Assembly: GCA_049423385.1 (NCBI GenBank) | Contig: JBMSQQ010000099.1 | Span: forward strand, 1 to 12,353 | Length of the DNA: 12,353 bases | Direction: 5' to 3' | From: Silvanigrellaceae bacterium | GTDB lineage: Bacteria > Bdellovibrionota_B > Oligoflexia > Silvanigrellales > Silvanigrellaceae | Shown: positions 1 to 10,908 of the stretch, in pieces | How positions within the stretch are numbered: position 1 is the stretch's first letter | Layout of the letters: every line of letters begins with the position of its first letter | Program-made: the position numbers and the translations under genes | Notes under the pieces: model-generated | What the model was told of the DNA's origin: nothing | Database searches by the model: none | The model's input: only the letters and a program-made list of their open reading frames with translations

Positions 1-1571
1 AAGTGAAGTTTGCTGCACCAGAACAACGGATTCATCTCTGACAGCGTGTCGCCATAAGCGCGTTTCCATGAATCACTCATCAAGGTCGACAATTCATCAG
101 GAGACAAAGTGCGCTCGCTGCGTTTTTCGTAGAATGACTTTTCAAACCAAAAACGGGCAGGAATGTTCAACAGGAATGCTTCTGCACTGCCCAAATCGCC
201 CCACAGCACTTGCCGCTTTTCTTCGGCAGACCTGGCCTTCTTCAACAACACGTCACTCACCACGGTTTCCGCAAAAATACTCGCCGTCTCGGCAAGCGTC
301 ATCGGATAATAAGTTTCCGGAAGTGGCAGATCACGCATGACCCAATTGTGAAATGCGTGACCCAATTCGTGGGCCAGGGTTCCAACGTCTTCAAGGCTTC
401 CCTTGTACGTCATGTACACCCGTGGGGTGCGCGATTTGGCAAAGCGCGTGCAATAGGCACCGGGCCGCTTGTTGTTGCTCACTGAACCTTCGATCCAACC
501 GTTGCGCACCATCACATCGACAAACTCACCCATCTCGGGATCAACATCGGCAAACGCGCTGCGCACAAGACCAATGGCTTCGTCGAAGGAAATTTTTGTT
601 TCCACTTCCGAAGGTGCAGGCGCAAAAAGATCCCAAGGACCCAGAGCCGGCAATTTCATTTCCTTTGCCTTGATGCGCACAGCTTGTCGGCCGATCTCGG
701 CATTGCCTTCGACAACCTGAATCATCGCATCAAGCGTGCTGCCGGTGATGTGATTCGAATGGAGCGGTTGATCCAAAAACTGGAGCTGCTTTTTGCCGCT
801 GCGCGTGCGGTAATTGTCCAGCCGCCAACCTGCCAGGGCGTTGAGGATGGAAGCACAGGATTCCTTTTGGGTTTCCCACGCACTGTTGATTCCGCGAAAA
901 GACGCCCGACGCTCTTCCGGGTCGGCACTCTGCAGCCCACCTGCGGCCCGCGCCAATCCCATGCTTTCGCTTTTCCCATTGTATACAACCGCGCACTGAA
1001 GCGACGAAGAAATGTTGTCGTACAATGTTCCCCAGGCAGAAGGACCATTCACAGCAAAGCGGGTGAGCAGTTTCTCTGATTCAAGACTCAACAAAAACGG
1101 CGACCACTCGCGTTCCTTGGCAATCAAGAAACGATGAGGAGCAAATTCCGCCCGAGCCAGACAAGCCGTCGCGAAAGCTTCCGGAGACTTTGTCATAATG
1201 AGGGAAAGTGACGTGACGGCCTCACCAAGCCGGGTCATTTGCTGACGCAACACGGCCTGCATTTGCCGAGCCTGAGCATGTCCTCCATCAACACTCAACA
1301 AACACGAAACAAACGTGCCGAGATTGGCACCCAAAACAAACGTTTCGTCTGCAGAGCGCCGAAAGCGGCTGGCAGCCTCGATCAATTCAATATCTTTCTC
1401 GGACAATTGTTCAACACGCTCAACTTCTGCATCGAACAAACCCGACTGTTCGATGATGCGCGCAATCGACTTGTTCAGCAGATCGAGGTCGGAAACAAAT
1501 TCAGGCGAATCCAAATCGCGATACTCTGAATTGTTGTTCCAGTGTGGTCCTTGAAAATTGTCCTGATTCAT
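1..1571 (-). CDS. pepF: Oligoendopeptidase F (peptidase family M3B), 3' end truncated by the window edge
   Basis: Absent from the ORF track because it has no stop codon in the window. Manual translation from ATG 1571 gives MNQDNFQGPHWNNNSEY...KRPGAYCTRFAKSRTPRVYMTYKGSLEDVGTLAHELGHAFHNW...YPMTLAETASIFAE...FWCSKLH. HELGH zinc motif at 357-371 and the AETAS third-ligand motif are M3B-typical. Start, a middle segment and the 3' part were checked and share one frame; not every codon was read. Confidence 0.93.
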   Translation of the reverse strand, partial: MNQDNFQGPHWNNNSEYRDLDSPEFVSDLDLLNKSIARIIEQSGLFDAEVERVEQLSEKDIELIEAASRFRRSADETFVLGANLGTFVSCLLSVDGGHAQARQMQAVLRQQMTRLGEAVTSLSLIMTKSPEAFATACLARAEFAPHRFLIAKEREWSPFLLSLESEKLLTRFAVNGPSAWGTLYDNISSSLQCAVVYNGKSESMGLARAAGGLQSADPEERRASFRGINSAWETQKESCASILNALAGWRLDNYRTRSGKKQLQFLDQPLHSNHITGSTLDAMIQVVEGNAEIGRQAVRIKAKEMKLPALGPWDLFAPAPSEVETKISFDEAIGLVRSAFADVDPEMGEFVDVMVRNGWIEGSVSNNKRPGAYCTRFAKSRTPRVYMTYKGSLEDVGTLAHELGHAFHNWVMRDLPLPETYYPMTLAETASIFAETVVSDVLLKKARSAEEKRQVLWGDLGSAEAFLLNIPARFWFEKSFYEKRSERTLSPDELSTLMSDSWKRAYGDTLSEMNPLFWCSKLH

Positions 1572-1625
1572 TTTGTTCCATTCTTTTATCTGTATTTTTC
1601 GTCGAGGTTCGGCTTTCGACCGGTC

Positions 1626-3194
1626 TTACGGTCTTGGAAGACGCATTTGTTCTGGATTGAAGCGGAAATCGATTCCACGGAATGTCATGTCGAGACGTGG
1701 TGTGTCGAGCGAGTCTCGACCATTCTCTGCACGACACTGTGGACGTGGCATGCCCGTGCGGGCCAGGTATGTTTTCCATTGGGCAGCGCGAAGCTCCGCA
1801 GACACTTCGCGCTCAACAACGATGGAACGGAAAACGTTGAAACTTGGTCGTGGTGTGCGGTGCAGCTCATTTGACCTGTCAACAGACAAGAGTCCGAACT
1901 TGGGACAATAACCATCTGCCCATTCCCAGTTGTCCGACAGCGTCCAGAAAAAATAGCCATCCACGGGCACGCCTGAATCCATCGCGAACTTCACCGCTGC
2001 CAAATGCTCAACAAGATAGGCTCCGCGCAGAACGTCCGTGGAATCGGAAATACCATTTTCCGTGACCACAAAACTGAGTTCGTTGCGCTCTTTTTTGCGG
2101 GAAATTTTCTGAACGTTGTAGCGATGATTGTATTCAACCAACAAAAGAGCCAAACCGGCGGGAAAAACAGCCCGGCCGGATTCGCTGTATTCGGCCCGAT
2201 CCACAAACGCCGCACCCAGTCCCTTGACGACTTCCTGCCCGTAATAATTGATTCCCAGAAAATCGAGCTTGCCTGCAGTTTTATCGGTGAAAACAAATTT
2301 TGAAATAGAATCAAAATACCTGGCAGACGGCCAGTCAAACCAACTTGCTCCAATATTGAAGCTGATGTTGTGGGCCAATCCGACCCGTGCCGGTTGTCCA
2401 TGCTGAAATGGATTCGTGGCGGAAGCCTTCGCGCGATCGAAAGCATGAATCATGTCGTAAATGCGATTGTGCGCCTTCGCGATGTTTTCGAGCGAAGCCC
2501 AATAGGCTCCTCGCACAACCAATGGAACCGATATCAATCCACCCAAACGCTGTTTTCCGCCGGGCGGCCAAATGCCTGCAACATCCGAGAGAAGGGCAAA
2601 TACAGTCGGTTCATTGAAGGTGATCCATTCATCAACCAGTCCCGAACATTCGCGCACAACGTCTTCGGCGAACCGCACAAAGGCATCAGAAACTTCTGGA
2701 TTCACCCAGCCACCCTTCTCAACCGCCCAGCCGGGCAACGAGTGGTGAAACAGAGTGACCACAGGTTCCATCCCGCGACCACGAATCATCCGAAGGATTT
2801 CCTTGTAACGCATCAAAGCCTGCTTGTTTTGAATTCCGGCAGGACAATTTCCAGCCTCGCCACACCTGGCGCTTCCGGGTTCGTTGGGAACAAGACGCCC
2901 CCAATCCAAGGCGAGGCGAAGTGTCTTGACTCCTGATGCCTGAGCCCAGTTGAGTTCGGTTTCCGGTTCGCTCCAGAAGCGCAATCGCTCTTCCGGATTG
3001 TCTGCGTTTTTCCAGGCCGCAACCCCACCTGCACGGGCGAATTCCACCCAGGAATCCTCGAGTGCATCCTCACTGTGCGCAGGCGCGGTTGCGAGCCCAA
3101 AGACAAATGGTTTGTCTTTGAACGAAATGCTTTGCGCAGACGCTGGCAAAGACAAAACTGTAAGCAACATGATGAGGCTACGGACCAATATCAT
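1626..3194 (-). CDS. Glycoside hydrolase family 1, SFR2-like, with predicted Sec signal peptide
   Basis: GH1 catalytic motifs TFNEP (2607-2621) and VTENG (2052-2066), plus TLFHHSLP and WTLSDNWEWADGY. Start moved from the track's TTG 3299 to ATG 3194, which has SD-like GAGAGG upstream and begins MILVRSLIMLLTVLSLPASA-QS (hydrophobic core, AxA cleavage site). Confidence 0.92.
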   Translation of the reverse strand: MILVRSLIMLLTVLSLPASAQSISFKDKPFVFGLATAPAHSEDALEDSWVEFARAGGVAAWKNADNPEERLRFWSEPETELNWAQASGVKTLRLALDWGRLVPNEPGSARCGEAGNCPAGIQNKQALMRYKEILRMIRGRGMEPVVTLFHHSLPGWAVEKGGWVNPEVSDAFVRFAEDVVRECSGLVDEWITFNEPTVFALLSDVAGIWPPGGKQRLGGLISVPLVVRGAYWASLENIAKAHNRIYDMIHAFDRAKASATNPFQHGQPARVGLAHNISFNIGASWFDWPSARYFDSISKFVFTDKTAGKLDFLGINYYGQEVVKGLGAAFVDRAEYSESGRAVFPAGLALLLVEYNHRYNVQKISRKKERNELSFVVTENGISDSTDVLRGAYLVEHLAAVKFAMDSGVPVDGYFFWTLSDNWEWADGYCPKFGLLSVDRSNELHRTPRPSFNVFRSIVVEREVSAELRAAQWKTYLARTGMPRPQCRAENGRDSLDTPRLDMTFRGIDFRFNPEQMRLPRP

Positions 3195-3270
3195 GAAACC
3201 TCTCAAACACGGCCGAACATCAAATCCAAAACCCAGGCCATCCGAAGATCGAAAACCCCGGAAGCTGCGG

Positions 3271-3299
3271 AGACTATTGCTTTGTATTGGCCTCGTCAA
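3271..3299 (-). promoter_or_regulatory. Candidate sigma70 promoter for the GH1 (and pepF) genes
   Basis: Minus strand TTGACG (3299-3294), 17-nt spacer, TAGTCT (3276-3271) in the 137-nt gap between the photolyase stop and ATG 3194. Confidence 0.55.
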
Positions 3300-3331
3300 C
3301 GACCAATATTCAACGATATTTTCTTGTGATT

Positions 3332-5023
3332 TTAGACAGATAACCTACCAAGCCAAGCCTGCATCCTGAGCTTTTTTTGCGCCGATGCCGTCGACATGCT
3401 GCGCACCAGCCCAAAGGGTTCACGCGCCGGAGGCCAAGGTCTGTCGTATTTTCCAAGGCACCAATAGATCCCCGTATATGAATTCGGATCACGTCCATCG
3501 AGAGAGTACTTGTTGTTGAGGTACTCCATGCGCTGCAAGGCTTCCTCGGGTCCGTTGGACCAGCGAACGATGCCCTTGCCCCAGAGCATCCGCATGTAAT
3601 TGTGAATCACTCCCGTGCGCAACAACTCACGTTGCGCAGCATTCCAAACCGGATCCGGACTTTGTCCCGCCTCGAGCTTCTCAAGCTCAACCTGACGCGA
3701 ACTTGGCGGAGTGAATTTCCGCAGGGTCTCGGCTGCCCAGTTTGGAACAAGTTGCAAACTCCCCAATGCGATTCCCGAACGATAGGCATAGTGTGACATG
3801 TTCTGTCCCAGCTCACGCCAGGTGACGAGTTCATCGATGAATTTGCCGGCAGATGTTTCAGCATGAATCTGCTCCGCACTTTCAACGCCCATGCGTTTTG
3901 CGGTCTCCGCCAGAATCGTTCGACTGTGGATCATTCCAAAATGCAGCCAAGGAGAAAGGCGTGAGGAACAAGCCTCATCGGGATGATTTCGTTCCTCTCC
4001 ATATCTTCCAATGTCATTTTTCAAGAATTGTTGCAGGCGTTTCAATGCCGGCGCTTCCCCACCCAGGAAAACGGAACTCCCAAAAACGCTGGGGCTGACA
4101 CGAGCAAAGGCACTGATGGCCCTGCCATATTCAAGCGCATCAAAATTTCGCGTGCCGACCGTGTCACCCAGCAGCAATTCGCCATCCAAAGCCAGCTTGC
4201 GATCAAAGACAAGACGCTCTGCAATCATGCTCTCAATGGCAAGTTTTTCGCGCATGGCAGTGGCAATATAAGGCTTCAATTTTGGCCTTATGAATCGCGC
4301 GGCAGCTTCAACCTTGGCGTATTTGAAGAGCGGAACCAAACCACAATCATCCACCAGAACAAACGGCGCCTCGGCAGCCTTTTTCTCGGTGAGCCGCTTT
4401 GAACGCAATGCGATGTCGGGAAAAATGTAAAACGTGGCCCAATCACAAACGACCGCAGAAGCCCTTTCGAGCAGCTTCGCGACGATTTGGGAATTGCGAA
4501 CCTGTGCCGGCTCACTCAACAAACCGGTCGTGAAAGCCTTCTCGGGAAGCAAGCTCGAATCAATCACCGCCGACACGTTTTTTTCCGGGTCGACACGCGG
4601 ATCGGCTCCCTGCGGCACGAAGATGTAACCATCCAGCTGCGCAGAGTTGTGTGATGCTCCCTGACCGACAAAAGAATGGACCCGCTCACTCGACCACGGC
4701 GCATTGCCCGACATGGCCTCAATCACCAATACCGGCTTTTTAAGCCATTTTGAAAGAACGCCCGCAACAGCAAGCCCGGCGTTGTCGCTCGAACGCCTTT
4801 GGACGGTCATCAGATAAACAACGTAGTCGCCTTCGACAGGCTGGGAACGCGCTGCTTTGTTCAGCACCGAGGCCAGTTTGAGAGCATCCGCAGGGGCTGA
4901 AGTCCAGGAAGTGAGGGGCTGCGGATCTCGCGCATCGCCATCACCAAAAACCAACACGCGGTCGAGAAACAACCCACGTTCAGCCAATTCCCCGCAAAAA
5001 CGCTGCGCCTGTTGATTGCCCAT
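3332..5023 (-). CDS. phr: Class II CPD (deoxyribodipyrimidine) photolyase
   Basis: Class II C-terminal signature DPVWNAAQRELLRTGVIHNYMRMLWGKGIVRW...YLNNKYSLDGRDPNSYTGIYWCLGKYDRPW...FGLVRSMS, SRLSPWLHFGMI, and N-terminal VVYLMTVQRRSSDN. Start set at ATG 5023 (AAGGA upstream); the track's TTG 5104 overlaps the divergent aroC start. Confidence 0.92.
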   Translation of the reverse strand: MGNQQAQRFCGELAERGLFLDRVLVFGDGDARDPQPLTSWTSAPADALKLASVLNKAARSQPVEGDYVVYLMTVQRRSSDNAGLAVAGVLSKWLKKPVLVIEAMSGNAPWSSERVHSFVGQGASHNSAQLDGYIFVPQGADPRVDPEKNVSAVIDSSLLPEKAFTTGLLSEPAQVRNSQIVAKLLERASAVVCDWATFYIFPDIALRSKRLTEKKAAEAPFVLVDDCGLVPLFKYAKVEAAARFIRPKLKPYIATAMREKLAIESMIAERLVFDRKLALDGELLLGDTVGTRNFDALEYGRAISAFARVSPSVFGSSVFLGGEAPALKRLQQFLKNDIGRYGEERNHPDEACSSRLSPWLHFGMIHSRTILAETAKRMGVESAEQIHAETSAGKFIDELVTWRELGQNMSHYAYRSGIALGSLQLVPNWAAETLRKFTPPSSRQVELEKLEAGQSPDPVWNAAQRELLRTGVIHNYMRMLWGKGIVRWSNGPEEALQRMEYLNNKYSLDGRDPNSYTGIYWCLGKYDRPWPPAREPFGLVRSMSTASAQKKLRMQAWLGRLSV

Positions 5024-5097
5024 GAGCCATTTTCCTTTACTCTTGAGGTGGCCCTCGTCTCGGGCTAGATCAACCACAATGTGAAACGGGGCGGACG

Positions 5098-6240
5098 ATG
5101 GCAAGTCAAATTGGGGTTATTTTCAAGGTCAGCACATTTGGTGAATCCCACGGACCAGCGGTTGGCTGCGTTGTCGACGGTTGTCCTGCCGGAGTTCCGC
5201 TCGACACGAAAGTTATTCAAGCCGAACTGAATCGCCGCAGACCAGGGCAAAACAAATTCACCACGGCGCGCAATGAGCCCGACACATGCAAAATACTTTC
5301 GGGTGTGGAAAACGGAATCACGCTCGGAACACCCATCGCAATCGTCGTGGAGAACAAGGATGCACGCCCCGCTGACTATTCAGACTCGCAATCCATCTTT
5401 CGTCCAGGCCACGCCGATTACACGTATCACGTGAAATTTGGAGTCTCGGCCCGCAGTGGTGGTGGCAGAGCCAGCGCCCGCGAGACGATTGGCCGTGTTG
5501 CAGCGGGAGCCGTCGCCAAGCAGATGCTTAAAAAAATCTGCGGAGAGAAAATTGCGGTTCATGCCTGGGTTCAGCGCATCGCCCATATCGATTGTGGAAA
5601 CGTGACCCGGCCATTGCCCACTGACTCCATTGAGTCCTCTGATTTGAGAACACCGCATCCGGAAGCTGAAGCCAAAATGAAGGAACACCTCGAGAGCCTG
5701 ATGCAGGCTGGTGACACTGCAGGTGGATTGATTCGCTGTGTGGTTGAGGGTGTGCAAACGGGCTGGGGCGAACCCGTCTTCGACAAACTCGAGGCAGAAT
5801 TGGCAAAAGCCATGCTGAGTCTTCCTGCGTCCAAAAGCTTCGAAATCGGTTCAGGGATTGCGGGCACATTCAGATCGGGTTCCGAAGAAAACGATGCGTT
5901 CATCCAATCCGACAGCGGCAAGACAATCACCCGCACCAACAACAGCGGTGGCATCCAGGGTGGAATCAGCAATGGCATGGACATTGAGTTTTCCGTGGGA
6001 TTCAAACCGGTCTCATCCATTCGACAAGCACAGGACTCGGTTTCCAAAGATGGCAAACCCCAAAAGCTGGAGATTCAAAAAGGCCGGCATGATCCCTGCG
6101 TCCTGCCAAGAGCCGTGCCGATTGTTGAAGCCATGACCTGGCTCACGTTGGCTGATCACGCACTGCGGGCTGCACTCAACCGAGTTGATTCGCTGGCAGG
6201 TTTCATGACTTCAAATCATCAAATGCAGAGTCCATCATGA
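5098..6240 (+). CDS. aroC: Chorismate synthase
   Basis: Signatures STFGESHG, RRRPGQ, RPGHADYT, GGGRASARET, TNNSGGIQGGISNG, GRHDPCVLPRAVPIVEAM. Confidence 0.98.
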   Translation: MASQIGVIFKVSTFGESHGPAVGCVVDGCPAGVPLDTKVIQAELNRRRPGQNKFTTARNEPDTCKILSGVENGITLGTPIAIVVENKDARPADYSDSQSIFRPGHADYTYHVKFGVSARSGGGRASARETIGRVAAGAVAKQMLKKICGEKIAVHAWVQRIAHIDCGNVTRPLPTDSIESSDLRTPHPEAEAKMKEHLESLMQAGDTAGGLIRCVVEGVQTGWGEPVFDKLEAELAKAMLSLPASKSFEIGSGIAGTFRSGSEENDAFIQSDSGKTITRTNNSGGIQGGISNGMDIEFSVGFKPVSSIRQAQDSVSKDGKPQKLEIQKGRHDPCVLPRAVPIVEAMTWLTLADHALRAALNRVDSLAGFMTSNHQMQSPS

Positions 6241-7223
6241 GCCAGCGCGTTGATGCGATAAAATTCATATCCGAGTTGCAGTCGGCGAAGGAAAACCCGC
6301 GGCTCAAGATAGTCCTCACCGACAACTCGCTCATCCGCAAATTGATTGCAGACAGGCTTCACAGGCTTGCGGGTGTGCGTCCTCAACTCTTCTCCGGCAA
6401 GTCTGCAGTTCAGGAAGCAGTGGAATCATTGTCAACAGGAGATCTGTTTGGCGAGCCTGCTCCAGCCTGGATCGAACTTTCCGAAAAAATGAGCGCGAAA
6501 CAATGGACGGAAGCTGCGGGACAATTCTCTCTCCTCAGTGAACCTGCGCGCCAGGAATTGTTTGTCCTGGCACCTGCTGCCAATCGGCATGGCGCACCCG
6601 AGGCCAAGGCACTGCCATGGAACGCGGAAGTTTTGGTGATTTATGAACCACAGCGTTCGGAAGGGCTCGAGATCCTAGCGATGCTCGCACCCAGGCATGG
6701 ACAAGTCATCAGCCAGGCCGGAAAATCGCAAATCCAACAATGGTGCATTGCCGCCTACGAACACTACAGTGCAGATCTCGAAGCTTGCGACCTTCATTTT
6801 GAACGGATGGCAAAGGGGCATCTTGCGTTCGAAGCTGCTTTTGTAGCCAAGACCAGCCTCGATGCATTCGATCTCGTCGAGGCATTCTCCACTGGCGACA
6901 TCAGCCTAGTGCATCTGCGCATGGCTCAACTTGAGCAGACTGGCGAAGACACCAGCAGTATTCTGTCGGTTTTTGCCTATACCGGACGCCAGGTTGTCGC
7001 ATTTCAGTCTGCACTGGCCAAGACAGGGAACGTTCGTTCAGCTCATGAGCAGGTTAAAACCCCTTACCCTTCCCAAGCCCGTATTGAGCGTCTGGCGAAA
7101 CTTGTGTCGACAGACAAATGGGCCCGTTTTTTTCTGGCAGCAGCGGAACTTGAGCTGCGTTGTCGAAACCAGCGCGACGCCCACAGTTGGCTGGCTGTCG
7201 AGCTGACTGGCCTTCTCTCCTGA
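6237..7223 (+). CDS. holA: Probable DNA polymerase III delta subunit (diverged)
   Basis: 328 aa, ATGA overlap with aroC. HolA-like elements: ESLSTGDLFG (SLF-type clamp-contact motif), DAFDLVEAFSTGD starting the C-terminal domain, and a helical C-terminus ending AAELELRCR...WLAVEL. Similarity is weak, so the call is tentative. Confidence 0.62.
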   Translation: MSQRVDAIKFISELQSAKENPRLKIVLTDNSLIRKLIADRLHRLAGVRPQLFSGKSAVQEAVESLSTGDLFGEPAPAWIELSEKMSAKQWTEAAGQFSLLSEPARQELFVLAPAANRHGAPEAKALPWNAEVLVIYEPQRSEGLEILAMLAPRHGQVISQAGKSQIQQWCIAAYEHYSADLEACDLHFERMAKGHLAFEAAFVAKTSLDAFDLVEAFSTGDISLVHLRMAQLEQTGEDTSSILSVFAYTGRQVVAFQSALAKTGNVRSAHEQVKTPYPSQARIERLAKLVSTDKWARFFLAAAELELRCRNQRDAHSWLAVELTGLLS

Positions 7224-7274: not shown

Positions 7275-8753
7275 ATGCAAACAGATGGTCAGGAAGTCTC
7301 AAAAACATTGCGTGTCCTGCAAAACATCAGGGTTTACCTGGTTGAAGACGATCTCCCCACGGCTCGCGTCTACCAGAAGCTCCTTCAGGATGCAGGTGCC
7401 ATCGTCGAACACTTTGCCACCGCATCGTCATTTCACGATCGCATGAAAAACAGCGACGAATGGGAAGGCCATGACTCCCTGCGTCCACAACTTGTGCTTG
7501 TCGACCTGATCCTACCGGACGGTTCGGGATTGGAACTTATCGAACTGTGGCACAAACGCTGGCCACACATTCCGGTGATTGCCATCACGGCCTATGCAAC
7601 GGTCGACACCGCGGTCACCGCCATGAAAGCCGGCGCGTTTGATTTTCTTCGCAAACCGATAGAACTGGAAGACCTTGTCCTGGGCATGCAAAAGGCCCAG
7701 CAGCACGGGGAACTGTTGCGCGAAAACAAATCCCTGAACCATGCCGTGCATATTCTGAGCATCGCCCAGACTTTGGCAGGAGTTTCCGAAAAAAAGGCGC
7801 TGCTCAAAACCTATCTCAAGCTCATCACCCGTGAGATCAAAACGAGCGAAGGGTTCTCGTTCTTTTTCGATGCCAACCGCTCCTATCCCGAACTTCTTCT
7901 GGATTTGAGGCAAGCGGGCCAAGGCAGAACCGAACCCCAGGAAGTCATCCAGCAGTCGTTGTCGCCCCTCATTCGAAACAGGGAACCGGTGCCCGAAAAC
8001 TTCGCTGAAGTGGACTCCGTGACTCTCATGCAGCCAAACATAATCGCCGCGAACCAATCTTCCTTCGTCGTGATTGAATTCAAGAGCCCCACCGGCAACA
8101 GCGGCTTCATTGCCCTTTCCAAGGAAGGACTTGCTCAACAAGCGTTGCTTGATGCCCTGCATCAAGTCATGCCGATCACCATGCAGGCAGCTCGCACGTT
8201 TCAAAATCTGGATGTGGCAACATCGCTTTCATTGGTCGACGAACTCACAGGCTTGTACAATCAACGCTTCATGGAAGTTTCGCTGTCGCGGGAAGTGGCA
8301 CGCAGCCAAAGGTACGGAAGCCCTGTCTCACTGCTTTTCCTTGATCTCGATCGTTTCAAATCGATCAACGACACCTTGGGCCACGTCGTTGGCAGTCAGA
8401 TGATCAAGGCCGCCGCAAAGACAATGCGTGATCTCATACGTGATTCGGATCAACTCTTGCGTTATGGCGGCGATGAATTCTGTGTCATTCTGCCAAACAC
8501 AACGCTCGAAGGTGCACACATCTTGGCAGAGCGCATCCGCTGTGTCTTTCATGAAAAGACTTTCAACCTGAGCGATTCAACCGGCGTGACAGACGCCAAC
8601 AAACTGAACATCACCACGAGCATCGGGGTTGCCTGCTTTCCGGAATCGGCACAAACGGTTCAGGAACTCGTCAAGGAGGCGGACGCTGCGATGTATGCAG
8701 CAAAGAAGGCTGGAAAGAACTGCGTGAGTCTTGCACGCACGCAAGCACTTTAG
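7275..8753 (+). CDS. Response-regulator dinucleotide cyclase, REC-middle domain-GGDEF, Hypr/GacA type (candidate 3',3'-cGAMP synthase)
   Basis: REC: VYLVEDD, LVLVDLILPDGSG (phosphoacceptor Asp), ITAY, FLRKP. GGDEF: DELTGLYN, DLDRFKSINDTLGHVVGSQ, I-site RDSD (8439-8450), GGDEF (8466-8480), ADAAMYAAKKAGKN. Ser (AGT 8394-8396) replaces the canonical GHxxGD Asp. Confidence 0.9.
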   Translation: MQTDGQEVSKTLRVLQNIRVYLVEDDLPTARVYQKLLQDAGAIVEHFATASSFHDRMKNSDEWEGHDSLRPQLVLVDLILPDGSGLELIELWHKRWPHIPVIAITAYATVDTAVTAMKAGAFDFLRKPIELEDLVLGMQKAQQHGELLRENKSLNHAVHILSIAQTLAGVSEKKALLKTYLKLITREIKTSEGFSFFFDANRSYPELLLDLRQAGQGRTEPQEVIQQSLSPLIRNREPVPENFAEVDSVTLMQPNIIAANQSSFVVIEFKSPTGNSGFIALSKEGLAQQALLDALHQVMPITMQAARTFQNLDVATSLSLVDELTGLYNQRFMEVSLSREVARSQRYGSPVSLLFLDLDRFKSINDTLGHVVGSQMIKAAAKTMRDLIRDSDQLLRYGGDEFCVILPNTTLEGAHILAERIRCVFHEKTFNLSDSTGVTDANKLNITTSIGVACFPESAQTVQELVKEADAAMYAAKKAGKNCVSLARTQAL

Positions 8754-9832
8754 ATGGTCTCCTGCGACTCTTCTTCACTGGCCCGATTGTTGAACTGAAT
8801 CAACAACTCGGACAAGGAACGGGAGGTCTCTGCGGTAAAATTGATGAATGACACGCCATGCCAATTCATTTGACCAACGATTTCAACCCATCTGACCTCG
8901 CAGGTCACGTTGGAAAGGCCTTTGCTCACCAACAACGAGTTCCAATCCTCTCGACCTGAAGTGATGGTGACGTTGATTTGTTCCTTTCGGGCAAATGCAG
9001 ACGGGAACTCGAGGCAAAACCCATTTTCCGAAAAATCCACAACCCGGCCTGAAAGTCCTTCACGTGTGACTGCATTGAGCGGCACATGACACAACCATGG
9101 AATACGAGGAGAAGCGCGCTTTGAGCCGGTTCGCACCAGGCGAAGAGCGCCTTTCAGAAGCTCCGCATCATTTCCAAATGGATTGCAATCCCATGCTTCA
9201 AACAAACCTGCCTGATGCTTCATCTGAAGGTAACGACGCCCCCAGAGTGCACTGACTCCGAAATCCAGCGGTTTGCCGTGATCATCTATAATGGTTTTGA
9301 CCTTGGGGCTCACCAAAACCCGAAAAATATCGGCTGCACTTTCCAGACGCTTTGAGAGGTTGACGGTCTCACCAATCAGCGTCACATCCGGATGCACATC
9401 ATCGGCGAGACTCAAATCCCCCATCAAAACAGGGCCGGCATTGATGCCGATGCGCACAGGCAGAGCGTGCCATCTTTTATGGTCCTTTTCATTGGGCGAC
9501 GTTTCAGAATCAAGAAAGCGCTTGGCCAATTCACGTTGAATTTGGATGGCGGCAGCAATGGCCGACATGGATGCCTCGGCAAGATAACTTTCCTCGTGTT
9601 CGCGAGTGCTGTCGTAAAAGTAACACAAAAGACCGTCGCCCAGTGTCTTGTTGACTTGTCCATGATGCGAACGAACAATCTCAGCGATGCGGCGCAGGCA
9701 CAGCCTGAGTTCAGAAAAAACAGTCGCGACGGATTTTTTCCCGGAAATTCGTGAAAAACCCTCGACATCGACAAACATGACCACCGCCTTGATCTCGCGC
9801 GGTTCGATTCCAAGCTGGGTTATATTCGTCAT
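8750..9832 (-). CDS. Class III adenylate cyclase fused to a C-terminal PilZ domain
   Basis: Cyclase motifs VMFVDVEGFS, NKTLGDG, VRIGINAGPV, DVTLIGETVNLSKRLES. PilZ motifs RASPR (9104-9118) and DFSENG (9020-9037) 22 residues apart, then CEVRW and HGVSF. No transmembrane segment seen. Confidence 0.9.
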   Translation of the reverse strand: MTNITQLGIEPREIKAVVMFVDVEGFSRISGKKSVATVFSELRLCLRRIAEIVRSHHGQVNKTLGDGLLCYFYDSTREHEESYLAEASMSAIAAAIQIQRELAKRFLDSETSPNEKDHKRWHALPVRIGINAGPVLMGDLSLADDVHPDVTLIGETVNLSKRLESAADIFRVLVSPKVKTIIDDHGKPLDFGVSALWGRRYLQMKHQAGLFEAWDCNPFGNDAELLKGALRLVRTGSKRASPRIPWLCHVPLNAVTREGLSGRVVDFSENGFCLEFPSAFARKEQINVTITSGREDWNSLLVSKGLSNVTCEVRWVEIVGQMNWHGVSFINFTAETSRSLSELLIQFNNRASEEESQETI

Positions 9833-9903: not shown

Positions 9904-10725
9904 TTACTGACGGATTTTGCTGCGCAGTTGTTTGAGTTTGGCAGCCGCCTCAAGATGCCGAGATTCAAGATCGGCAAGATGTTTTTCGGCCTTCCCTGGA
10001 TCTTCCGAACTGGTGAGAAGCAAACCCAGATGCCCTTCCATTTCATTCAGCTGAAGCTGCTGGCGCGAAAGAATCTTGGCGGCCTTGAAAAGATCGCTGT
10101 CTGCAACCGAATTTTCGGCAGCAGGAACAGGCGCAACCTTGCTGCTGCTGTTGGCTGTCGAGGAGTCGCTTGCCGACGAAAGTTCAGGCTTCGCTGCAAC
10201 AACGTTTGCCGATGCCACTGCATTGACTGGAGACGTTTGAGCTTGCTCCTGTGCAAGCCCCTGGGTCGGCGAGGCTTGAACAAGATCGTTCGTCACTGTG
10301 CTTTGTGACGACTCGTTGGAGCCCATCTGGGATTGCAAAGCAGGCTCATCCGATGTGGACTTGCTGGTTGCTTTGGTCGAATCCGACAACGACAAGATTG
10401 TGCGAATTGTTTCAACTTCAGGCGAGTCGGATGTGAGCCGCCCGGTTCCAATAGCGAACCAGAGAGAACCCAAAATCGTCAGCAGGAATCCGCGCATCAG
10501 CCAACGTCCGGGTCCAACGCGGGAGCTTCGGAAATTGTCAGTAGCCTCTGCAAACTGGCTCATCGCATAGTCAAACCTGCTCTTGGCATTTTTGCTCGTG
10601 GCCCGCGACGAACCTGCGAGAATGGAATTTTGTGGCAACGACAACGGAACCACATTGGATTTGATGTTCTTGTCGTTGTTTCTGATCTCGTCAGGGCCAA
10701 AAGACATGGGAAATTGAGAGTTCAT
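9904..10725 (-). CDS. Hypothetical bitopic membrane protein with Ser/Thr/Ala/Gln-rich linker and helical C-terminal domain
   Basis: 273 aa from ATG 10725 (GGAGG at 10739-10735). One hydrophobic segment WLMRGFLLTILGSLWFAIG (about 10447-10503), a low-complexity middle, and a heptad-like C-terminus (LSRQQLQLNEMEGHL...LADLESRHLEAAAKLKQLR). No family recognised. Confidence 0.75.
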   Translation of the reverse strand: MNSQFPMSFGPDEIRNNDKNIKSNVVPLSLPQNSILAGSSRATSKNAKSRFDYAMSQFAEATDNFRSSRVGPGRWLMRGFLLTILGSLWFAIGTGRLTSDSPEVETIRTILSLSDSTKATSKSTSDEPALQSQMGSNESSQSTVTNDLVQASPTQGLAQEQAQTSPVNAVASANVVAAKPELSSASDSSTANSSSKVAPVPAAENSVADSDLFKAAKILSRQQLQLNEMEGHLGLLLTSSEDPGKAEKHLADLESRHLEAAAKLKQLRSKIRQ

Positions 10726-10750
10726 GGCACAGGTCCTCCGAGGCCATGCT

Positions 10751-10767
10751 TGCAAAATCCGTGCCAG
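10751..10767 (-). promoter_or_regulatory. Sigma54 (RpoN) -24/-12 promoter
   Basis: Minus strand CTGGCACGGATTTTGCA matches YTGGCACGRNNNTTGCW with exact GG-N10-GC spacing. Predicted +1 near 10740, just before the SD of 9904..10725. Confidence 0.8.
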
Positions 10768-10908
10768 AAACACGCCTTGCCAATAAACCGCAAATATTCA
10801 TAAACATTGAGGTTTAATTCAAAAACCAAACCCAATCCGCGAAAAACTCGGAAGAAGTGGGTAAACAGTGTAAAGAAATTGTTCAGTCGAGCAGCAGGGG
10901 AATCCGAG

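Follow-up and report, generated by a model that had tools for sequence, protein, structure and literature searches.

The window analysed here is the entire 12,353-nucleotide contig JBMSQQ010000099.1 (C99 in our numbering) of a freshwater, predatory-type Silvanigrellaceae bacterium (assembly GCA_049423385.1), and the question that it raises is whether one of its genes encodes a bacterial relative of plant SFR2, what such a protein would do, and what it says about the origin of the plant enzyme. SFR2 is a textbook example of a glycoside hydrolase family 1 (GH1) "hydrolase" that in practice transfers glycosyl groups on lipids and shields chloroplasts in freezing conditions. As a rule GH1 enzymes stay in the cytoplasm, and an exported, disulfide-bonded bacterial GH1 is unusual. 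The gene in question (1626-3194, minus strand; ATG at 3194-3192, stop at 1628-1626) encodes 522 amino acids (aa). Its product, called the window protein below, is very probably a secreted GH1 of the SFR2 clade. The genome bin that holds the window consisted of 3.47 Mb in 183 contigs and was 90.6% complete.

Similarity searches set the window protein apart from ordinary GH1. The Pfam GH1 model (PF00232) matched residues 30-461 with 161.8 bits (cut-off 22.6, E 2.4e-47). The protein stayed under all NCBIfam equivalog cut-offs, with 180 bits against 475 for BgaS, the best match, and 178 against 478.5 for BGL; ordinary full-length GH1 scored 255-340 bits to these two models. Among the 193 matching GH1 sequences in the PDB the top score was 150 bits, and the S. 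solfataricus enzyme reached about 131 bits. In a search of 5.8 billion clustered proteins, named plant SFR2 proteins scored 402-408 bits, in alignments that covered 83-94% of the query at 42-46% identity; the plant matches comprised SFR2 of Coffea, Ranunculus, Carica and Selaginella and homologues of Wollemia, Calypogeia and Catharanthus. A scan of 1.84 billion representatives gave 9,923 matches at E ≤ 1e-3, just 426 of them at E ≤ 1e-30; among full-length representatives, the SFR2-like ones lay between about 524 and about 250 bits and ordinary GH1 at about 150-170 bits. The ESM Atlas gave the same picture of family and taxa. Judged by these scores, the likeness of the window protein to plant SFR2 is far above chance.

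Phylogenetic trees were constructed with 7-16 divergent GH1 plus E. coli BglA as outgroups, the characterised archaeal GH1 standing outside the trees. The FastTree tree of 148 rows, rooted on E. coli BglA, split 132 SFR2-like rows from 16 other GH1 with a support of 99. For IQ-TREE, 75 of the 148 rows were used, one or a few per FastTree clade, and the longest branches (E. coli BglA, L093, P0227 and P0243) were dropped. The SFR2-like clade had a support of 100 in both quick trees, one of them run under LG+G4 on the 75 rows, and of 100/100 in a full search under LG+C20+F+G4, where it held 68 of the 75 rows. The preliminary description of this DNA, made from its letters, had proposed a phylogeny against plant SFR2 and other GH1; in all four trees the window protein lay inside the SFR2-like clade, apart from the other GH1, and not with ordinary GH1 outside it. 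The window protein and four orthologues from the same genus grouped at 100/100. Its membership in the SFR2-like clade is firm by these trees.

The same division was seen in single residues. Across 68 SFR2-like rows, in an alignment that included the window protein, 82 positions were conserved at 93% or more; 47 of these, including NEP, TENG, NYY and the sugar-binding motif NxEW, were common to at least six of the seven outgroups. Positions conserved in at least 93% of the 68 rows and present in at most one of the seven outgroups were taken as diagnostic, and the window protein had all 19 of them (F32, D43, D47, R70, P77, H151, G319, E321, E335, Y336, R341, E396, D427, K432, R440, R484, R488, D509 and R511). 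The predicted catalytic acid/base E195 (FNEP motif; 2610-2612, minus strand) and the predicted nucleophile E379 (TENG motif; 2058-2060, minus strand) were invariant in alignment A1 and common to at least six of the seven outgroup GH1. The -1 subsite was essentially canonical for GH1, with H150, N194/E195, Y318, E379, W417 and E424/W425 likewise common to at least six of the seven.

The motifs on which the preliminary description had based its SFR2 assignment were all found in the translation: FGLATAPAHSED at residues 32-43, VAAWKN at 58-63, then ERLRFWSEP, KLDFLGINYYGQEVV, EYSESGRAVFP and DNWEWADGYCPKFGLLSVDR, and the tail RPQCR...LDTP...DFRF at residues 484-512. Their plant counterparts (FGLATAPAHVED, NVAAWHN, ERLRFWSDP, KLD[YF]IGINYYGQE, EYSESGRGVYP, DGYGPKFGLVAVDR and DWRF) were matched in the SFR2 sequences of Coffea, Carica, Ranunculus, Wollemia and Selaginella, a set of five that leaves Arabidopsis outside.

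The C-terminal extension of SFR2 type (residues 462-522; 1629-1811, minus strand) is predicted to form a helix (466-477) and a hairpin (483-488/495-504) followed by DFRF, and the diagnostic residues R484, R488, D509 and R511 fall in it. The tail past residue 455 had at least 57 residues in 68 of 68 SFR2-like rows and 12-32 in the seven outgroups. The AlphaFold2 (AF2) model of the window protein had a mean predicted local distance difference test score (pLDDT) of 89.3 and a predicted template-modelling score (pTM) of 0.90, with a pLDDT of 83-97 in the extension block up to residue 510. All top Foldseek matches to this model were GH1 barrels ((beta/alpha)8). The closest solved folds were beta-glycosidases of archaeal type, headed by the S. 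solfataricus enzyme LacS (1uwr; E 2.3e-29, template-modelling score 0.67-0.72, 26% identity). LacS and other archaeal-type GH1 have the same retaining mechanism, and the best NCBIfam match was the BgaS model. By sequence LacS scores only about 131 bits, and these enzymes are without the SFR2-type extension and the diagnostic residues and are cytoplasmic hydrolases of broad specificity. The bit scores, the four trees, the 19 diagnostic residues and the C-terminal extension together back the earlier view that the gene encodes a bacterial SFR2 homologue and not a generic GH1.

Bacterial homologues of this kind were already visible in databases under automatic labels. Since the JGI pipeline labels four bacterial rows (P0043, P0051, P0079 and P0083, out of the 120 homologues listed) as "galactolipid galactosyltransferase", the databases already tie bacterial proteins to SFR2, although by automatic annotation only. 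In the open-access full texts searched, no study of bacterial SFR2 homologues, or of a transfer origin of SFR2, was found, and in the excerpts of one paper that contains both "SFR2" and "horizontal gene transfer" the two terms were not linked. In the sections available, PMC11525325 samples land plants and streptophyte algae only, and PMC8065580 states that no SFR2 orthologue is known in unicellular algae. The window protein represents a known kind of enzyme in a new architecture: loop-less, and predicted to be exported and disulfide-bonded.

Two features separating this variant from the plant enzyme, a signal peptide in place of a membrane anchor and the lack of a long loop before VAAW, had been noted in the preliminary description, and both were recovered. 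The predicted Sec signal peptide (residues 1-20; 3135-3194, minus strand), read by eye, has R5, a hydrophobic core of about 11 residues, and P-A-S-A before Q, with a cut after A-S-A (A20/Q21). The same layout was seen in 19 of 20 genus-level homologues; the N-terminus of P0019 was hydrophobic but outside the motif pattern. In the AF2 model the N-terminus formed a low-confidence helix (2-13) apart from the barrel. The site of the plant Loop A, between R53 and A54 (3033-3038, minus strand; alignment A1 columns 142-218), is uninserted. The spacing from FGLA to VAAW is 26 residues in the window protein, against 87-101 in seed-plant SFR2 and 217 in a liverwort SFR2, which together give 87-217 for clade-I-type SFR2 of plants.

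The mature window protein has five cysteines, at positions 111, 117, 183, 430 and 487. In 211 non-identical SFR2-like sequences, positions 430 and 487 were C/C in 188, held no Cys in 22 (G/W, G/Y, G/-, L/T or A/T) and a single Cys in 1; by this covariation C430 (DGYCPKFG; 1905-1907, minus strand) and C487 (RPQCR; 1734-1736, minus strand) are predicted disulfide partners. A second predicted disulfide, C111...C117, lies in a short insertion, PGSARCGEAGNCPAG (2844-2864, minus strand); both Cys were present in 82 of the 211 sequences and both columns were gapped in 102, and the pair was missing from plant forms and from SFR2-like forms with a transmembrane (TM) anchor in alignment A1. The groups without Cys at 430/487 were the seed plants (G/Y), TM-anchored proteins matching two Spirochaetota-labelled metagenome-assembled genomes (MAGs) (G/W) and six leaderless loci. 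When a crude classifier was applied, the C430/C487-type pair was carried by 175 of 189 sequences whose N-terminus was hydrophobic or had a lipobox, and by 13 of the 22 others. We read this pattern as a disulfide that would be present where the enzyme is exported and lost where it faces the reducing cytosol. DsbB and an adjacent DsbA-like gene were found on contig C17 of the genome.

The six leaderless loci (L050, L054, L055, L056, L058 and L059) are early-branching. Their frames begin at the barrel, they have G/W (G/gap in L059) at the positions of C430/C487, and they look cytoplasmic; their labels are Bacteriovoracaceae, Halobacteriovoraceae or generic Proteobacteria.

Comparison with plant SFR2, that is, clade I of the streptophyte galactolipid:galactolipid galactosyltransferases (GGGT), showed the same GH1 subfamily (42-46% identity, one clade at 100/100), the same catalytic Glu pair, the clade residues (F32, D43, R70, H151, E321, E335, Y336, R341, K432 and R440 among others) and the C-terminal extension RPxxR...LDxP...D[WF]RF. 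Besides the missing Loop A, the window protein differs in its predicted cleavable signal peptide, where the plant enzyme has an N-terminal anchor and sits in the chloroplast outer envelope; in its two Cys pairs, where seed plants have G and Y at the C430/C487 positions; in its short Cys-bearing insertion after beta-3; and in stopping soon after DFRF, where plants run on for at least 40 residues. The clade II SFR2-like proteins of bryophytes and ferns, compared by their description in the available sections of PMC11525325, are alike in their short Loop A region. According to the same source, the Marchantia member MpGGGT2, with a short loop, gave no trigalactosyldiacylglycerol (TGDG) on expression and was weakly cytoplasmic and not at the envelope. 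Clade II differs in being eukaryotic; the bacterial protein is predicted to be exported. Selaginella P0118 has a spacing of 28 residues and C/C at the two covarying positions, as in the bacterial proteins, and judging by its short loop and its place next to the clade-I plants in the tree it probably belongs to clade II. The window protein itself belongs with the bacterial SFR2-like GH1 of Bdellovibrionota, Elusimicrobiota and some Spirochaetota.

The window protein is proposed to be an exported, disulfide-stabilised, retaining beta-glycosidase/transglycosidase of the SFR2-like GH1 subfamily that would act, non-processively, on a beta-glycosyl lipid. We give this statement as a whole an even chance, and the glycolipid, non-processive part of it, taken by itself and drawn from sequence comparison, slightly less than that. 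In the proposed mechanism, Sec would export the protein, signal peptidase would cut after Ala20, and the DsbA/DsbB pair would close C430-C487 and C111-C117. Through the C430-C487 bond, the C-terminal extension of SFR2 type would be pinned to the loop beside the sugar-binding NWEW motif. E379 would attack a beta-linked galactosyl or glucosyl donor, with E195 as acid/base, and water, or an acceptor through one of its sugar hydroxyls, would resolve the glycosyl-enzyme. The substrate would be a beta-glycosyl lipid, either of the bacterium's own envelope or of a phototroph or prey membrane, and hydrolysis or single transfers would be expected. The preliminary description had suggested that the enzyme may act on galactolipids from algae or cyanobacteria.

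A beta-glycosyl lipid appears the likeliest substrate because the nearest characterised relative acts on galactolipid headgroups at the surface of a membrane and because the clade residues and the C-terminal region are kept, with neither Loop A nor an anchor. The link to lipids comes from the sole characterised members of the clade, which are galactolipid enzymes according to the available text of PMC11525325, and from P0125 (943 aa, 44% identity by BLASTP). In P0125 the SFR2-like GH1 is fused to a C-terminal lipid acyltransferase/lipase domain of LCAT/PDAT type (PF02450, 2.7e-33), and the N-terminus is signal-peptide-like.

Several points weigh against a lipid-active exported enzyme. The substrate of the bacterial members is proposed from homology alone, and the signal peptide and the disulfides are predictions. 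The Cys pair is kept in the 13 of 22 sequences that were classed as having no leader, by a classifier that is crude and with some of these gene models borderline or possibly truncated. The LCAT fusion P0125 is a single sequence on one 4.9-kb contig. The gene neighbours, in the window and at 80 loci, offered no lipid or sugar clue and no operon logic. In the 90.6%-complete genome no match to PF06925 (MGDG-synthase type, for monogalactosyldiacylglycerol) or PF13506 (GT21) was found, GT4-type glycolipid synthases not having been searched, and an endogenous galactolipid is therefore unsupported.

The strongest competitor, which we still consider unlikely, is that a soluble beta-glucosidase/galactosidase works in the periplasm or outside the cell to scavenge beta-glycosides or oligosaccharides in solution, an enzyme related to SFR2 by descent but with no lipid substrate. 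The essentially canonical -1 subsite would suit such an enzyme, as would the lack of both membrane anchor and Loop A and the failure to find a glycolipid synthase with the two families searched; AtSFR2 itself shows hydrolysis of beta-glucosidase type in vitro, according to the available text of PMC8065580. However, the 19 clade-specific residues and the C-terminal extension are common to the bacterial proteins and the galactolipid-acting plant enzymes, the plant C-terminal region is reported as necessary for transferase activity (PMC11155703, available sections), no sugar transporter or kinase lies among the neighbours, and P0125 joins this domain to an LCAT-type lipid enzyme. If the window protein is an ordinary soluble glycosidase, the evolutionary point stands and the functional interest drops.

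At the opposite extreme, the window protein could be a true GGGT (EC 2.4.1.184) that makes oligogalactolipids and diacylglycerol in its own envelope or on foreign membranes, as the four automatic JGI labels would have it. Plant SFR2 shares with the window protein its catalytic pair, its clade residues and the greater part of its C-terminal region, yet we regard this activity as decidedly doubtful. Loop A and the C-terminal region are both reported as required for the transferase activity of SFR2, Loop A being called crucial (PMC11525325 and PMC11155703, both citing Roston 2014; available sections), and its absence here is therefore evidence against a plant-like processive transferase. The short-loop paralogue MpGGGT2, as noted above, gave no TGDG (PMC11525325, in part), and the 90.6%-complete genome yielded no gene of MGDG-synthase type. 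For the C-terminal region, positions 550-580 of the plant protein were mapped onto the window protein with the Arabidopsis SFR2 numbering, which we take to be E267/E429 for the catalytic pair. By this mapping, which rests on that assumed numbering and on the cotton/Arabidopsis offsets in the available part of PMC11155703, the LDxP...D[WF]RF part of the stretch required in plants is present, and the protein ends about 10 residues past DFRF, without the last part of the plant region. The window protein is probably not a processive oligogalactolipid synthase by this comparison. The three readings are ranked with the non-processive enzyme on lipid headgroups first, the soluble-substrate periplasmic glycosidase second and the true GGGT third.

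The trees also bear on where plant SFR2 came from. All plant rows and a marine eukaryote transcript fell in one clade of 16 rows, with a support of 95 in the two quick trees and 81/83 in the full search. Rows clustering with the plants include P0077, P0084, P0092, P0132-P0137, P0140 and P0141; the known eukaryotes are the plant rows and P0080, from a marine eukaryote transcriptome, only. The outgroup-rooted nodes that held both the plant-containing clade and that of the window protein comprised 65, 55, 48 and 43 rows (supports 98/84, 100/91, 94/89 and 98/99), and the rows shut out at these successive nodes were labelled Bacteriovoracaceae, Bdellovibrio-type, Elusimicrobiota and other bacteria. 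In the best tree the plant-containing clade was sister to a 12-row group that united the window genus with two relatives of Silvanigrella type and the spirochaete forms with a TM anchor, but this join was weak (50/89 and 58/80), and the trees fall short of making the window gene the specific sister of plant SFR2.

In approximately unbiased (AU) tests, a constraint placing all 52 bacterial rows in one clade, a group defined after a tree had been seen, was not rejected, either under LG+G4 (p 0.151, delta lnL 30.7) or under a posterior mean site frequency (PMSF) mixture (p 0.111, delta lnL 21.7). The preliminary description had suggested that the gene may inform the origin of SFR2 or reflect gene transfer. 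The window gene does bear on that origin, given that the clade with the plants is nested in a radiation made up mostly of bacteria; the direction of any transfer is not settled, since the AU tests leave bacteria and eukaryotes as two sister groups unrejected. A eukaryote clade nested within bacterial SFR2-like sequences is favoured but not proven by these trees.

A fuller scenario can be sketched, which we think possible though less probable than its opposite. The SFR2 subfamily would be bacterial at its root, as a Bdellovibrionota-centred radiation of mostly exported, disulfide-bonded GH1, and the SFR2 clade of streptophytes, and of eukaryotes more widely, would derive from a single transfer out of a crown group with the Silvanigrellaceae gene and the TM-anchored spirochaete form. 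Plants would later have gained Loop A and lost the disulfide once the enzyme faced the cytosol, and the loop-less bacterial enzymes would already have acted on the headgroups of galactolipids or other beta-glycosyl lipids in the membranes of phototrophs or prey. If the bacterial-root reading is true, the loop-less bacterial enzymes would be the ancestral, minimal form of a glycosidase turned into a lipid-remodelling enzyme. The bacterial radiation offers a concrete proposal for the source of the plant gene and a simple bacterial model for the rise and working of SFR2.

Given the high similarity to plant proteins, one might also suspect that the gene passed recently from a plant to the bacterium, or that plant or algal DNA contaminates the bin. 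This is very improbable, being contradicted by synteny and trees. The GC content of the gene, 52.8%, is close to the 52.4% of the contig and the 51.4% of the genome; all but one of the 12 genomes of the genus (11, the remaining one being 70% complete) have an orthologue, with the same oligopeptidase F flank in all orthologue loci examined except L010 and L019. The identity to plants is just 42-46%, relatives occur at no fewer than 129 loci in genomes of bacterial species, and the plant-containing clade is separate (95; 81/83) and does not enclose the bacterial gene. Orthologues in Silvanigrella- or Silvanigrellaceae-titled loci had 69-72% identity and the same synteny, and vertical inheritance within this genus of Silvanigrellaceae-type bacteria is the best explanation. 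Least probable of all is that an ordinary GH1 came to resemble SFR2 through a chance set of family-wide motifs, for although many of the motifs quoted overlap GH1-wide ones (NEP, TENG, NYY; 47 positions common to outgroups), the bit-score gap, the clade support of 100/100, the 19 diagnostic positions, the C-terminal extension and the sub-cut-off NCBIfam scores contradict it.

The SFR2-like family is mostly bacterial. Of 152 stretches picked out by a pattern scan of species-representative genomes, 129 proved to be relatives; the best 80 were kept, with taxa assigned by record title. The best 80 of the 129 loci comprised 50 Bdellovibrionota, 15 generic Proteobacteria/Pseudomonadota, 7 without a phylum, 5 Elusimicrobiota, 2 Spirochaetota and 1 Bacteroidota, and all were MAGs or uncultured isolates. 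The 50 Bdellovibrionota titles were Bacteriovoracaceae (23), Pseudobdellovibrionaceae (7), Silvanigrellaceae (5), Halobacteriovoraceae (4), Oligoflexaceae (1) and unplaced (10), and several of the generic "Proteobacteria" titles fell in the window's own genus by kinship. Within the window's phylum, a match at E ≤ 1e-60 was found in 26 of 116 genomes (at least 80% complete) and in 10 of 50 genera; in one well-assembled genus of the same family, 0 of 12 genomes had an SFR2-like match. That the family is concentrated in predatory lineages is a hint that it may act on glycolipids of foreign cells or of the envelope.

Loop A is missing from the bacterial members, which vary in disulfide state, in leader type and in the signal for export: the majority carry a Sec signal peptide, and others have a lipoprotein signal, an N-terminal TM anchor without Cys, or no leader. 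With its natural variants, this large sister or parent radiation lets one ask which parts make a galactolipid transferase out of a glycosidase. Many lipoprotein-type forms of 670-750 aa, including copies in the window's own family, have a C-terminal extension of about 200 residues without a Pfam match (P0023, P0026, P0034, P0038, P0041, P0057, P0058 and P0065; loci L023, L028 and L094-L096). P0025, P0029, P0031, P0033, P0035, P0036, L025 and L026 match Spirochaetota-labelled MAGs and have a plant-like layout: they are TM-anchored at the N-terminus, have a conserved VLA.F-type segment ahead of the barrel, lack the Cys pair and run on past DWRF. These spirochaete-type forms grouped with the window genus, with supports of 87-91 in the quick trees and of 88/85 in the full search. 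In P0123 (1057 aa), a signal peptide and about 500 residues with FG-GAP/VCBS-type repeats stand ahead of the SFR2-like domain.

By the usual signs, the SFR2-like gene is a working gene: it is free of stops, both putative catalytic glutamates are intact, orthologues are kept, and dN/dS was 0.044 against a 90%-identical orthologue (dS 1.5, near saturation). A Shine-Dalgarno-like GAGAGG (3199-3204, minus strand), by consensus resemblance, lies 4 nt 5' of the ATG. The frame is open upstream to a TTG at 3299, but this start was set aside because the orthologue protein models begin at the same Met as the ATG at 3194. When positions 1400-3500 were scanned for promoters and terminators, a single promoter-like site appeared at 3356-3329, against a chance expectation of 1.4, and the terminator-like sites were weak; these sites were set aside. 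The sequencing-run listing showed that seven DNA runs in two studies carry the sequence, with zero RNA runs listed.

The SFR2-like gene is followed downstream by oligopeptidase F; upstream lie a photolyase-like gene and then chorismate synthase on the opposite strand. This order (aroC, photolyase-like, SFR2-like, pepF) was kept within the genus only. Clustering of the 561 flanking open reading frames (ORFs) of 80 loci showed that the recurrent neighbours were generic (ABC ATPases, DTW, sigma factor, glutathione peroxidase, APH, OPT and FadB-like). With the order genus-bound and the recurrent neighbours generic, the neighbourhood was dropped as a clue to function.

The photolyase-like ORF directly upstream (3332-5104, minus strand; 590 aa) had no Pfam match at E 0.01. 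Its residues 243-587 matched class II cyclobutane pyrimidine dimer (CPD) photolyases in the PDB (8oet, 1.8e-50; 2xry, 1.1e-49), the first 240 or so being unmatched, and it may be a divergent or N-terminally extended photolyase. ORFs at 6237-7223 (plus strand, 328 aa) and 9904-10773 (minus strand, 289 aa) had no Pfam match; the 328-aa ORF was kept beside chorismate synthase in same-genus loci. A response-regulator-GGDEF diguanylate cyclase is encoded at 7275-8753 (plus strand), and its 3' end overlaps by 4 bp the convergent gene at 8750-9832 (minus strand), in which an adenylate/guanylate cyclase domain is fused to PilZ. A maker of cyclic di-GMP thus adjoins a cyclase with a domain of the type that binds cyclic di-GMP.

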